Source: an uncultured Gemmatimonadota bacterium
GTDB taxonomy: Bacteria > GCA-2686955
Assembly: GCA_964490075.1 (NCBI GenBank)
Contig: CAZBBK010000002.1
Coordinates: 50,105-114,104 of the forward strand
DNA length: 64,000 bases
Reading direction: 5' to 3'
The notes beneath the pieces are model-generated. The model did not search any database and was not told where the DNA came from. It saw only the letters and a list, made by a program, of their open reading frames with translations. Numbering within the stretch: the first letter of the stretch is position 1; the number at the start of each line of letters is the position of its first letter. Shown piece after piece: positions 19,050 through 21,411 of the stretch. Position numbers and translations under genes: made by a program.

Positions 19050-19519
19050 AGACCCGCCGCGCCTTCGCCACCGACCTGCCGCGCCTGCTCGAGCTGGAGC
19101 GGCGCATCTTTCCCGATCCCTGGTCGCGGGAGATGTTCCTCGAGCAGATGGCGGAGGGGCTGGTGCTGGTCGCCTCGCTGGAGACGCGGTCCCCGATATT
19201 CGGCTACGTCGCCGCGGTGCGCGAGTATCGACGGGTTCACATCACCAACCTGGCGGTCGAGCGGGGCGAACGGCGGCGGGGGAGCGGTCGCCGGCTGCTC
19301 GATGCCGTGCTCGACGCCGGCCGCAGAGACGGCGCGCGCAGTGCTCTCTTGGAGGTGAGAGCGTCCAACGCGGCGGCCGCCGCCCTGTATACTGCGGCCG
19401 GATTTCGCCCGGTCGGCCGCCGCGCGGGCTTCTACCCGCGCGATCTCATCGGAGCCCGCGAGGATGCCGTGGTCTATCGCCTCGAGCTGCATCCGCTATC
19501 GAACCAGAGCAGTCCATGA
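19046..19519 (+). CDS. rimI: ribosomal-protein-alanine N-acetyltransferase (GNAT)
   Basis: GNAT motif ITNLAVERGERRRGSGRRLL; conserved position after tsaB. Confidence 0.75.
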   Translation: MKTRRAFATDLPRLLELERRIFPDPWSREMFLEQMAEGLVLVASLETRSPIFGYVAAVREYRRVHITNLAVERGERRRGSGRRLLDAVLDAGRRDGARSALLEVRASNAAAAALYTAAGFRPVGRRAGFYPRDLIGAREDAVVYRLELHPLSNQSSP

Positions 19520-21411
19520 GAATCGATCCCCTGGTCGCCCTCGGCTTGGCCCTCGGATTCGCCGCGCCGGCCGCGGCGCAAAGCCCGCGCTCGATCGACG
19601 GCACCCACGTCATCGAGCGGGCGCTCGGTGGGCGCTCGGCGGTGGCCGAGATCCTCGATGCCTGGCGGCTGCGCCCGGCGCCCTTCGGCGCCAGCGCCGG
19701 CCGTTGCACCAACGGCGCCGACACCCTCGACTACGAGCTCTTCAACATCTTCGATCTGAGCGACTTCGACGATCTCGGCGGAGTCGACCTCGGCTGCACC
19801 AAGGTGCGGCGCACCGAGCACGCCTATCTCTACGTGCAAAGCTCGCTGTGGGGCGGCGCCCTGATCAACGAGTCGGTGATCGACACCTTCGTCACCCTCT
19901 TCGAGTCCCAGACCCCCGCCCTCGCCGATCCGCCCTATGTCGTGCCTTCCGTCGACCCTTCGTCGGGCATCTTCGACATCCTCGAGACCCGACTGCGCCC
20001 CCTGCCCGATTCCAGCGATCCGCGCGATGTCGACGGTCTCGATCCGATCTACATCGTCTTCGTCGACATCCCCGACAGCTACCGGCGCCCCGGCGACGTG
20101 GCGGTCAACGGCTACTTCTCGTCGGTCAACCAGCTCTGCGAGGACGAGTTCCTGACCCACTACGGTTCCTACGCCGCCAAGGGGCTGATGACCAACGAGA
20201 AGGAGATGTTGGTGCTCGACATCGACCCCTCTCTGGGGGGCGGCTTCCGCGACATCGTGCGCGGCGTCCCGGCCCACGAGCTGCAGCATCTTCTGCACTG
20301 GTTCGCCGATGAGCGCGAGTCGGTCTGGCTCGACGAAGGCTTCGCCGATCTGACCGCCGAGCTGGTCGGCTTCCCCGCCGTCGGCCACTACGACGCTTTC
20401 CTCGACAATCACGACGCATCCTCTCTGGCGCTCTGGGAGCAGGAGCAGCGCGACTACGGGCATGCCGCCCTCTTCGTGCGCTACCTGGCCGACCATCCAC
20501 CCGCGGCGCAGGCCGAGCGCTGGGGCCACATGGAGGCGCTGCGGGCGGTGATGGCCTCTGGCGATACTGCGGTGGCCGGCATCGGCACGGGTCTGGCCGA
20601 GGTGGGCGATCCACGCGGAATGCTCGAGCTCTATCTCGATTTCTCGACCGCGATGCTGCTGCGCGACGCGGAGTTCGAGCTGGGCCAGTACGGCATGCCC
20701 GAGGGCGGACCGGAGCTGGATCCGCGCGCGGGCTCGTTCAGCGACGCCGAGCTGACCGGGATCGCCGGCGCCAGCGAGGCCAGCATGGACGACCAGGTGC
20801 TCAGCCTGACCGCACGCTATGTGCAGCTCGAGCCCTTTTTCGCCGACTCCATCTATGTGCGCGTGACCGGCCCGGCGACGCTCGGGGCGCACGCGCTGGT
20901 CGGCTTCGACGGCGGCGATCCCCTGAATCTCGATCCGGTCGCGGTGGTCGAGCTGGAGACGGTCGCGATTCAAGGAGACGACACCGTGCGCGAGGCGCTC
21001 CTGACGGATATCGGGGCGAAGGGGGATCGTGTGATCGTGGTCACCTCGCAGCTCGACCCGGCCCAACCCGGGGGCAAGGGCGGAGCCGCCGGCTACTCAG
21101 TCGGTGTGTCGGGGGACGCATCGGAGCCGGGCAGCTGTCTCTCGCTGCTACGCGTCGGCCCCAACCCCGCCGACTTCTCGGCGGGCGCCGCCGCACCCGA
21201 TGTCTCGTTCTTCGGCGACGCGCCTGGCCCCACCTGCGCGCGCATCGCCATCTACGACGCGGGCGGCGCGCCGGTGCGCCGCCTCGACACGCCGCCCTTC
21301 CGCTGGGACGGCACCAACGACGCCGGGCGCTTTGTCGCCGGCGGTCTCTATCACTGGGTCGCGCTCGGCGAAGGCGCGCGGCGCCGCGGAACGATCGCCG
21401 TGCTGCGCTGA
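19516..21411 (+). CDS. secreted HExxH zinc metalloprotease with C-terminal T9SS/FlgD-Ig-like sorting domain
   Basis: ATG 19516 (ATGA overlap with rimI); signal peptide MRIDPLVALGLALGFAAPAAAQ; HELQHLLHWFADE(+E) motif; last about 85 aa match the Por_Secre_tail/FlgD-Ig pattern (PNP...YDAGGAPVRRL...W.G.N..G..VA.GLY...). Confidence 0.7.
   Translation: MRIDPLVALGLALGFAAPAAAQSPRSIDGTHVIERALGGRSAVAEILDAWRLRPAPFGASAGRCTNGADTLDYELFNIFDLSDFDDLGGVDLGCTKVRRTEHAYLYVQSSLWGGALINESVIDTFVTLFESQTPALADPPYVVPSVDPSSGIFDILETRLRPLPDSSDPRDVDGLDPIYIVFVDIPDSYRRPGDVAVNGYFSSVNQLCEDEFLTHYGSYAAKGLMTNEKEMLVLDIDPSLGGGFRDIVRGVPAHELQHLLHWFADERESVWLDEGFADLTAELVGFPAVGHYDAFLDNHDASSLALWEQEQRDYGHAALFVRYLADHPPAAQAERWGHMEALRAVMASGDTAVAGIGTGLAEVGDPRGMLELYLDFSTAMLLRDAEFELGQYGMPEGGPELDPRAGSFSDAELTGIAGASEASMDDQVLSLTARYVQLEPFFADSIYVRVTGPATLGAHALVGFDGGDPLNLDPVAVVELETVAIQGDDTVREALLTDIGAKGDRVIVVTSQLDPAQPGGKGGAAGYSVGVSGDASEPGSCLSLLRVGPNPADFSAGAAAPDVSFFGDAPGPTCARIAIYDAGGAPVRRLDTPPFRWDGTNDAGRFVAGGLYHWVALGEGARRRGTIAVLR

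Follow-up and report, generated by a model that had tools for sequence, protein, structure and literature searches.

The gene under study lies in a window of 64,000 nucleotides, the whole stretch of DNA that was analysed, from an uncultured Gemmatimonadota bacterium. It is a real gene: an open reading frame of 632 codons (stop included) at 19516-21411 on the forward strand encodes a precursor of 631 residues, full-length orthologues exist at 45-74% identity, and an AlphaFold2 model was obtained with a mean pLDDT of 89.5 and a pTM of 0.84. Both the reading frame and its last 85 residues were translated exactly as the original prediction had quoted them. The features of the locus are as follows.

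15121..24484, + strand: co-directional string of HK, REC-PglZ regulator, tsaE, tsaB, rimI, protease, PNP, accD and folC genes (Pfam)
19046..19519, + strand: rimI-like GNAT acetyltransferase gene (Pfam Acetyltransf_1, E 1.5e-15)
19516..21411, + strand: whole protease gene (translation, full-length orthologues, AlphaFold2 model)
19516..19578, + strand: Sec-type signal peptide, residues 1-21, MRIDPLVALGLALGFAAPAAA, followed by QSP (read from the sequence)
19579..20730, + strand: M30-like gluzincin catalytic domain, residues ~22-405
20275..20289, + strand: HELQH, with H254 and H258 as two putative zinc ligands and E255 as putative general-base Glu (invariance, lugdulysin alignment)
20335..20337, + strand: E274 in WLDEGFAD, putative third zinc ligand (invariance, spacing, lugdulysin alignment)
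20455..20457, + strand: Y314 in DYGHA, putative transition-state-stabilising catalytic Tyr (conservation, lugdulysin alignment)
20731..21126, + strand: middle beta-sandwich, residues ~406-537
21127..21408, + strand: C-terminal Ig-like domain of the T9SS type-A kind, residues 538-631

The precursor thus has four parts, namely the signal peptide, a catalytic domain of ~385 residues, a beta-sandwich of ~130 residues and a C-terminal domain (CTD) of 94 residues. The predicted layout of secreted protease and sorting domain held in other respects and was refined by the beta-sandwich between them, which resembles pre-peptidase C-terminal (PPC) and collagen-binding domains and is closed by a linker rich in Gly, Ser and Asp. 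The signal peptide ends in an Ala-x-Ala cleavage site and contains neither a lipobox Cys nor a twin-Arg motif; cleavage would be expected after residue 21, and the orthologues likewise start with hydrophobic N-termini. Residues ~25-70, where the confidence of the model is lower, are possibly an N-terminal pro-segment. The mature protease is acidic (pI 4.4) and carries a basic CTD (pI 9.0), in which the motifs PNP, YDAGGxPV, WDGTNDxG and GLYHW are followed by the terminal strand RRGTIAVLR. On the whole, the protein is of an ordinary kind, and its sole unusual feature is its conserved place within a housekeeping gene string.

Genomic setting

The neighbours proposed in the original prediction, tsaEB-rimI upstream and PNP-accD-folC downstream, were borne out. 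Pfam supported TsaB, the GNAT/RimI acetyltransferase, PNP, AccD and FolC; TsaE was read from its GPLGAGKT and SPTF motifs, and PF02367 matched the orthologous genes. The predicted overlap was found as well, as the ATG of the protease gene at 19516 and the rimI stop codon ending at 19519 share an ATGA tetranucleotide. The same four-nucleotide overlap occurs in two related contigs (L007 and L009), and the two genes are separated by gaps of 6 and 18 nt in L005 and L001, respectively. No promoter-like site was found in 15000-25500, and the sole terminator-like site there lies at 24851, beyond folC. The protease gene is probably co-transcribed with rimI and, in this genome, translationally coupled to it, so that steady rather than induced expression would be expected within the conserved string. 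The protease may be constitutively expressed and may sit at the cell surface. Its place behind rimI is a small curiosity that could serve to ask whether exported proteases of this sort are constitutive.

The same gene order was recovered in L001, L005/6, L007/8, L009 and L010, and the wider string reads Omp85-TamB-HK/REC-PglZ-tsaEB-rimI-protease-accD-folC-ABC-LptD. Elsewhere in the window, three open reading frames on the reverse strand (1925-3211, 3251-3916 and 4051-5577) were discarded as spurious, given that the gene calls of L011 show a forward-strand trp/aro operon there. A WbqC-like gene at 24563-25306, with a GC content of 0.596, is missing from the related loci and provides an example of an insertion in this region.

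Catalytic domain and wider family

The HELQH motif with a downstream Glu, noticed in the original prediction, occupies residues 254-258 with the Glu at position 274. H254, E255, H258 and E274 were invariant in an alignment of 68 relatives, mostly 20-26% identical, and Y314 was conserved in at least 90% of them. Spacing was equally constrained: 124 of 126 motif-bearing relatives kept HExxH-x15-E, which places E274 15 residues past H258. In the alignment with lugdulysin (PDB 7bb8), HELQH was paired with HEYQH and WLDE with WLNE. The position of E255 reads Gln in the mutant chain 7bb9 (entry title E242Q Y315F), and the position of Y314 is Tyr in 7bb8 (NY) and Phe in the Y315F mutant 7bb9 (NF). 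These correspondences point to H254, H258 and E274 as likely zinc ligands, E255 as the probable general base and Y314 as the probable catalytic Tyr. Because the four residues are invariant and their spacing is conserved, the HExxH motif is not a chance occurrence, an explanation that was also ruled out by the profile match to M30 described below. The predicted HExxH gluzincin, with its signal peptide and a conserved position for the third zinc ligand, was therefore upheld at the level of sequence.

The family of this peptidase, which had been called unclear, could be assigned. The profile of the close clade matched lugdulysin at E 0.0098, the superfamily profile of 68 sequences matched this M30 enzyme at E 2e-55 over 320 residues, and a Foldseek match at E 7.8e-12 supported M30 homology as well; the catalytic domain has the same predicted fold as hyicolysin and lugdulysin. 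PF10460 (Peptidase_M30) gave no match to the protease at E ≤ 10 and matched just one of the 68 relatives, weakly (E 0.0019). Since the gathering threshold of this model was not reached, the protein is filed as M30-like, within the same superfamily, and is kept apart from the curated family itself. Judged from its sequence, then, the catalytic domain is a distant relative of the M30 peptidases hyicolysin and lugdulysin, and the gene is predicted to encode a zinc-dependent protease. As tsaD often lies downstream of rimI, a TsaD-like identity was also considered; it was ruled out by the M30 gluzincin fold together with the signal peptide.

Word-indexed homologue searches returned the same seven close relatives from the single sequence and from the alignment, and an exhaustive search (E ≤ 1e-3) raised the number to ~4,000 cluster representatives, a part of which match the tail only. 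Pfam models did not reach threshold on the catalytic domain in any of the members tested. A tail-type domain terminates 68 of 155 collected relatives; within the 68-member alignment, Por_Secre_tail matched 17 sequences and CHU_C matched 13, and the Latescibacterota relatives bear the NCBI name 'T9SS type A sorting domain-containing protein'. One relative, from Poribacteria, has no tail, and the relative in L003 ends differently, so that the tail behaves as a lineage-dependent export module. Many members in candidate phyla of the FCB group carry T9SS-type tails, and the family is thus likely to represent T9SS cargo beyond Bacteroidota that has been overlooked. In this way, a protein labelled hypothetical in public sources gains a family (M30-like gluzincin) and putative catalytic residues, and a large, mostly unannotated superfamily is tied to the structurally characterised lugdulysin; nothing here overturns current understanding.

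C-terminal tail and route of export

The TIGR04183 and PF18962 search suggested in the original prediction for the C-terminus was negative: neither model matched the whole protease at E ≤ 10 or the isolated tails of seven clade members at E ≤ 1. The sole Pfam match on the tail was FlgD_ig (PF13860), whose 16.9 bits fall under the cut-off of 27. When the tails of the protease clade were compared by hhalign with those of distant relatives, an alignment that includes tails passing TIGR04183, the two matched at 98.9% probability and E 1.1e-17 up to the last residue, and an HMM built solely from the tails of distant relatives matched the protease tail at E 1.4e-5. As a control, internal FlgD_ig repeats were aligned with the tail and reached just column 86 of 97, with the terminal strand missing. 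In its predicted structure, the tail forms a compact Ig-like beta-sandwich similar to the solved CTDs; these ranked first in the structural comparison with no FlgD among the top 60, although canonical T9SS tails were part of the alignment used for modelling and may have biased the model in their favour. The likeness to T9SS or FlgD_ig domains is significant only by profile-profile and structural comparison; as both methods were positive, the silence of the curated HMMs was not taken as proof of absence. We conclude that the tail is, by profile comparison, a homologue of T9SS type-A sorting domains up to and including the last strand, and that it is predicted to fold alike. The T9SS/FlgD-Ig-like tail of the original prediction is accordingly retained on profile and structural grounds, and the part that rested on the curated models is not.

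Taken together, the most probable reading, to which we assign a probability of roughly 0.6, is that the gene encodes an exported M30-like zinc metalloendopeptidase with a T9SS type-A-like tail that leaves the cell through the type IX secretion system. The Sec system would take the precursor to the periplasm, where its CTD would be recognised by the type IX translocon; in Bacteroidota, CTDs are recognised by SprA and PorV. A PorU-type sortase would then remove the tail, and the protease would be freed outside the cell or attached to its surface, where it may cleave proteins or peptides, with the middle domain possibly aiding substrate binding. Catalysis would rely on H254, H258 and E274 as zinc ligands, E255 as general base and Y314 as catalytic residue. 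A Sec signal peptide at the N-terminus and a tail domain at the extreme C-terminus, residue 631 being the last before the stop codon, are consistent with such export.

The search for the machinery and for further cargo bears on this route. No T9SS component gene was detected by Pfam or NCBIfam among the 39 open reading frames scanned in the window outside ~39.9-42.3, 47.6-49.5 and 53.7-55.9 kb, and no gene called within 10 kb upstream of the window belongs to a T9SS family. A second tail-bearing open reading frame was found neither in the window nor in the related contigs L001-L009, a sample of ~5% of a genome. With the tail profile as query, the only matches were three weak FlgD_ig fragments and an orthologue truncated where its contig stops (P0013, L010); thus, the tail-profile search, the window and the related contigs revealed no cargo family with the same signal in this lineage. 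In the literature, it has been stated in passing that T9SS 'may also be present' in Gemmatimonadetes (PMC11285876), and our literature search on T9SS in Gemmatimonadota returned nothing beyond that statement. Incompatibility of T9SS export between species is also known (PMC11285876).

The absence of T9SS genes and of further cargo near the protease gene favours a different account of the tail, in which the same M30-like protease carries a merely structural or binding Ig-like domain of the FlgD_ig type and stays in the periplasm or exits through type II secretion or vesicles. The sub-threshold FlgD_ig match also speaks for it, as do the PDB sequence-level matches of the clade tail profile, the best of which are FlgD proteins (E 0.019-0.13, against 0.27 for PorZ). 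In other proteins, moreover, FlgD_ig-like modules occur as 9-15 internal tandem repeats, and such modules are therefore not always signals. However, each full-length orthologue, and nearly every relative that carries the domain, has it at the extreme C-terminus, the terminal strand of the domain is common to TIGR04183-positive tails in a region where the internal repeats do not align, the predicted structure ranks T9SS CTDs ahead of FlgD, and a basic tail is attached to an acidic protein. The protease is also devoid of any flagellar hook-capping context, its N-terminal 535 residues being protease and PPC-like domain, and there are no flagellar genes near it. This account is possible but distinctly less probable than T9SS export. 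It is rather improbable that the protease serves as a fixed, co-expressed part of envelope housekeeping that processes outer-membrane or surface proteins, and not as a nutrient scavenger, or that its T9SS-like tail works without the canonical T9SS of Bacteroidota; in the latter case, a widespread domain would have a different receptor.

Two further explanations concern the enzyme and the gene. The fold might have been kept for binding by a catalytically dead pseudo-protease, for example an adhesin or a surface-layer component. NCBIfam does hold families of T9SS-dependent inactivated metalloproteases, one of which, T9SSA_dep_M6i, is among the weak matches, and catalysis in this clade is read from sequence; yet the invariance of H254, E255, H258 and E274, and the near invariance of Y314, across such distant relatives make a dead enzyme very improbable. 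Least credible is a recent horizontal acquisition of a foreign gene that landed in a housekeeping operon. Genes for secreted proteases are unusual between rimI and accD, and with a GC content of 0.66-0.70 this one is slightly GC-poor. The GC range of its neighbours nevertheless includes these values, and the rimI-protease-(PNP)-accD-folC placement is kept wherever flanking genes are readable, down to 45% protein identity. A recent insertion was rejected on this conserved synteny: the position that had been called odd is real, and it is of long standing and conserved in the lineage.

Comparison with known systems

With the M30 family of MEROPS, comprising hyicolysin of Staphylococcus hyicus and lugdulysin of S. 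lugdunensis (PDB 7bb8/7bb9; PF10460), the protease shares just ~16-17% identity. In contrast to these enzymes, whose hosts are Firmicutes, it comes from an FCB-group diderm and has two additional parts, the PPC-like domain and the tail of T9SS type. Among NCBIfam models, NF045524 (MXAN_6640 family putative metalloprotease) matched residues 251-390 weakly (19.4 bits, E 7e-4) and the HExxH region in 10 of 10 relatives tested (E 7e-5 to 5e-14), with all scores (19-53 bits) far short of the 140 bits set as curated cut-off; the two families are related but distinct.

The tail has in common with T9SS type-A CTDs (TIGR04183/PF18962; solved in RgpB, PorZ, PorU, mirolase, NucA and FspA) its terminal place, a length of ~90 residues and a predicted Ig-like beta-sandwich. 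They also share PNP, a turn of the form YD..G..V with its Gly, WDG...G, G.Y and a last strand that is hydrophobic, is preceded by a basic residue and ends in R/K. Unlike them, it escapes detection by the curated HMMs and, in the close clade, has an additional 'FFGDAPGP' segment and a pair of Cys residues (C541/C574). A parallel in overall design is offered by T9SS-dependent metallopeptidases of Bacteroidota, such as T9SSA_dep_M36, T9SSA_dep_M6i and the KLIKK proteases of Tannerella (PMC11285876), which are encoded alongside a demonstrated T9SS. The same order of signal peptide, zinc protease, accessory beta domain and T9SS tail is found in these enzymes and in the present protein, whereas the catalytic families differ, being M36, M6 and others in Bacteroidota and M30-like here.

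The gene and its probable operon

The ORF at 19516-21411 gives 631 uninterrupted residues, and the last 85 residues quoted in the original prediction match the translated C-terminus exactly. The genes discussed in this section are as follows.

15121-17885, plus strand: histidine kinase, then a response regulator with a PglZ (alkaline-phosphatase-like) output domain
19046-19519: GNAT/rimI gene, upstream of the protease
19516-21411, plus strand: protease
21448-22293, plus strand: PNP gene, directly 3' of the protease
24563-25306, plus strand: WbqC-like gene

The protease ATG at 19516 is situated within ...cagtccATGAgaatc... 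and consequently shares four bases with the TGA stop of the GNAT/rimI gene, so that the predicted ATGA overlap was confirmed. A longer in-frame ORF from 18850 was discarded as an artefact of 70% GC; orthologues begin at the Met of the protease. In the N-terminus, MRIDPLVALGLALGFAAPAAA followed by QSP, the n-, h-, and c-regions typical of substrates of Sec signal peptidase I can be read; it has neither a lipobox Cys nor a twin arginine, and the signal peptide would be cleaved between MRIDPLVALGLALGFAAPAAA and QSP. The residue following this predicted site, Q22 (19579-19581), matches the Bacteroidetes 'Q-rule', in which Gln behind the cleavage site leads to pyroglutamate formation (PMC5837995); conservation of Q22 among orthologues is inconsistent.

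Pfam confirmed the neighbours that had been named (TsaB, GNAT, PNP, AccD, and FolC), and TsaE was recognized through its own motifs and through PF02367 matches on orthologous genes. Upstream, Pfam also found the histidine kinase (HK), the REC-PglZ regulator, and TamB. The common order, (Omp85)-TamB-HK-REC/PglZ-tsaE-tsaB-rimI-protease-(PNP or 61-85-aa ORF)-accD-folC-ABC ATPase-LptD_2, was found again in the related loci L001 (74% identity), L005/L006, and L007/L008 (60-61%). In L009, a shorter contig (45% identity), the stretch from REC-PglZ through the protease is visible, and in L010, where a truncated orthologue lies at the contig end, the order can be followed from the protease onward.

Junction between rimI and the protease gene
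Window: 4-nt overlap
L007: 4-nt overlap
L009: 4-nt overlap
L005: 6-nt gap
L001: 18-nt gap

The position, described as odd in the original prediction, is indeed unusual, but the placement is old and conserved across related loci, and the protease gene is not a recent insertion. A site scan revealed no promoter-like or terminator-like sites from 15.0 to 24.8 kb, and co-transcription of the protease with the housekeeping genes is likely.

Other parts of the gene string differ among loci. The slot behind the protease is variable: the PNP gene occupies it in the window, L001, and L010, and a family-less 61-85-aa ORF in L005 and L007. The WbqC-like gene (Pfam E 4.5e-72), which lies in a local GC dip (0.596 vs ∼0.70), has no counterpart in the interval from folC to the ABC ATPase gene of L005, L007, and L010, and unlike the protease it looks like a lineage-specific insertion. 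The HK/REC-PglZ pair between TamB and tsaE is kept in L005-L007, with a matching ORF pair at this position in L001 and the regulator at the equivalent place in L009; REC-PglZ is an uncommon layout for a regulator, here lying among envelope-biogenesis genes. Because TamB has an Omp85/POTRA gene ahead of it, the true start of 'TamB' probably lies downstream of the TTG at 10325.

An M30-like catalytic domain

With the single protease sequence, Pfam gave no peptidase match better than E 0.16, and NCBIfam gave a weak MXAN_6640_HExxH match (19.4 bits vs a cut-off of 140). A search of 5.8 billion clusters brought up only seven close relatives, of which one comes from a Gemmatimonadota MAG. For a six-relative profile, the best solved relative was lugdulysin (PDB 7bb8; E 0.0098), the Staphylococcus lugdunensis zinc metallopeptidase of family M30. 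The aligned span takes in the beta-sheet segment leading up to the motif, HExxH itself, and the W-L-N/D-E segment, together with a Tyr that is replaced in the 7bb9 mutant chain relative to 7bb8; the 7bb9 entry title reads E242Q Y315F, and in the window protein the two mutated positions are occupied by E255 and Y314.

An exhaustive search of 1.84 billion representatives yielded 3,974 proteins at E<=1e-3 and 595 at E<=1e-10, including two close clusters belonging to the protease clade, which is a narrow branch within a large superfamily. In a superfamily alignment of 68 members, mostly with 20-26% identity to the window protein, G199, H254, E255, H258, D265, and E274 were invariant and Y314 was kept in at least 90%. 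The HExxH-x15-E spacing was observed in 124 of the 126 relatives bearing the motif, and the HExxH with a downstream Glu noticed originally is therefore not a chance motif. The 68-member profile matched lugdulysin with an E-value of 2e-55 over 320 residues; the AlphaFold2 model from the same alignment was confident (pLDDT 89.5, pTM 0.84), and its Foldseek matches to 7bb9 and 7bb8 had E-values of 7.8e-12 and 5.7e-11 (target-normalised TM 0.60-0.64).

Because of the profile matches to lugdulysin, the conserved residues, and the Foldseek match of the model, the catalytic domain is predicted to be an M30-like gluzincin. The family, originally left unclear, can thus be placed by profiles and Foldseek, although the curated Pfam M30 model, PF10460, did not detect the window protein and matched weakly in only 1 of 68 relatives; we therefore name the domain M30-like and not a curated-family member. 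We put the probability of an M30-like metalloprotease precursor at about 0.9. A hyicolysin-like M30 peptidase was noted previously in a Latescibacteria single-cell genome (PMC4454575).

The C-terminal tail and proposed T9SS export

The HMM check proposed for the C-terminus came out negative on the single sequence: the curated T9SS sorting-domain models TIGR04183 and PF18962 gave no match, and FlgD_ig reached 16.9 of the required 27 bits. TIGR04183 was above its cut-off in the distant relatives P0010, P0012, P0014, and P0017, and two Latescibacterota members are labelled 'T9SS type A sorting domain-containing protein' by NCBI. Por_Secre_tail, CHU_C, and FlgD_ig matched 17, 13, and 29 of the 68 aligned members, respectively, at E<=0.01. 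The tail domain occurs in 68 of the 155 collected proteins; among these carriers it is single and lies <=∼30 residues from the C-terminus, except in three tandem-repeat proteins. A profile-profile comparison between the clade's tails and ten tails of distant relatives, TIGR04183-positive ones included, gave 98.9% probability (E 1.1e-17) over 81 columns up to the final residue, and an HMM from the distant tails alone detected the window tail (E 1.4e-5).

As a control, FlgD_ig-like modules, repeated 9-15 times in tandem inside three large proteins, were also homologous to the tail (97.4%). Their alignment ends at column 86 of 97, and hence the terminal strand RRGTIAVLR is missing from the repeats. 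Since homologous internal repeats exist without this strand, broad FlgD_ig-like superfamily membership is not diagnostic, but the terminal strand common to sorting domains is. The proteins concerned (P0011, P0025, and P0052) are very large, one being a 2,295-aa S8 subtilase, and offer a useful caution against reading every FlgD_ig match as a secretion signal. At the plain sequence level, FlgD proteins slightly outscore PorZ against the tail, and a caveat is that canonical tails were part of the alignment behind the tail model. The T9SS-type tail of the original prediction is thus missed by the curated HMMs, but favoured by both tail comparisons and by the terminal strand. The tail is basic (pI 9.0) and the protein acidic (pI 4.4). 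A Cys pair inside this domain, C541/C574 (21136-21138, 21235-21237), is kept in the five closest full-length orthologues and missing from the 45%-identity orthologue. The catalytic domain has three invariant Cys residues, C64, C94, and C208, and disulfides are possible.

A sorting signal requires its own machinery. No T9SS component was found among the scanned window genes (those outside ∼39.9-42.3, 47.6-49.5, and 53.7-55.9 kb), no T9SS family among the called genes of the 10 kb upstream of the window, and no second tail-bearing protein in the window, in ∼100 kb of related contigs, or by a tail-profile database search. An earlier survey found T9SS confined to Bacteroidetes (PMC4793230), and of Gemmatimonadetes it is said that T9SS 'may also be present' (PMC11285876). 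Because neither machinery nor a second tail protein was seen and the literature says only 'may', export via T9SS is our best inference and not a result; we lean towards the protein being T9SS cargo.

Other genes of the window
1-9400, plus strand: trp/aro biosynthesis operon, beginning the window (locus L011)
47-1246, plus strand: trpB, start of this operon
After trpB, plus strand: trpA, aroA, aroE, aroK/aroB, aroQ, cdsA, in operon order
7364-8728, plus strand: RseP, after cdsA
28915-33590: S8 subtilase (minus strand, 439 aa, without a C-terminal sorting domain) adjoining two BNR/Sortilin-like paralogues that weakly resemble F510_1955-type glycosyl hydrolases; trio found again in L007
33669-35957, minus strand, and 36944-38713, plus strand: two N-acetylmuramoyl-L-alanine amidase genes, one with two Amidase_3 stretches, the other with TPR/YfiO-like, AMIN, and Amidase_3 domains
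59141-60812, plus strand: response regulator with an excisionase-type HTH ahead of the receiver domain, then a patatin-like phospholipase weakly similar to CBASS/anti-phage lipases, well under their cut-offs

Long minus-strand ORFs at 1925-3211 and 4051-5577 gave no family matches and were rejected as high-GC artefacts.

Comparison with known proteases

Lying below the HMM thresholds of PF10460 and TIGR04183, the protein is a divergent relative that current pipelines annotate as 'hypothetical protein'. What is usefully gained is a family assignment, a catalytic residue list, and a link of a large unannotated superfamily to a solved structure. The sole unusual feature is the conserved operonic position, which prompts the improbable reading of an envelope-housekeeping function for the enzyme. 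The layout of signal peptide, zinc protease, accessory beta domain, and tail is common to the window protein and T9SS-dependent proteases of Bacteroidota, and its catalytic domain would be expected to work as in M30 enzymes.
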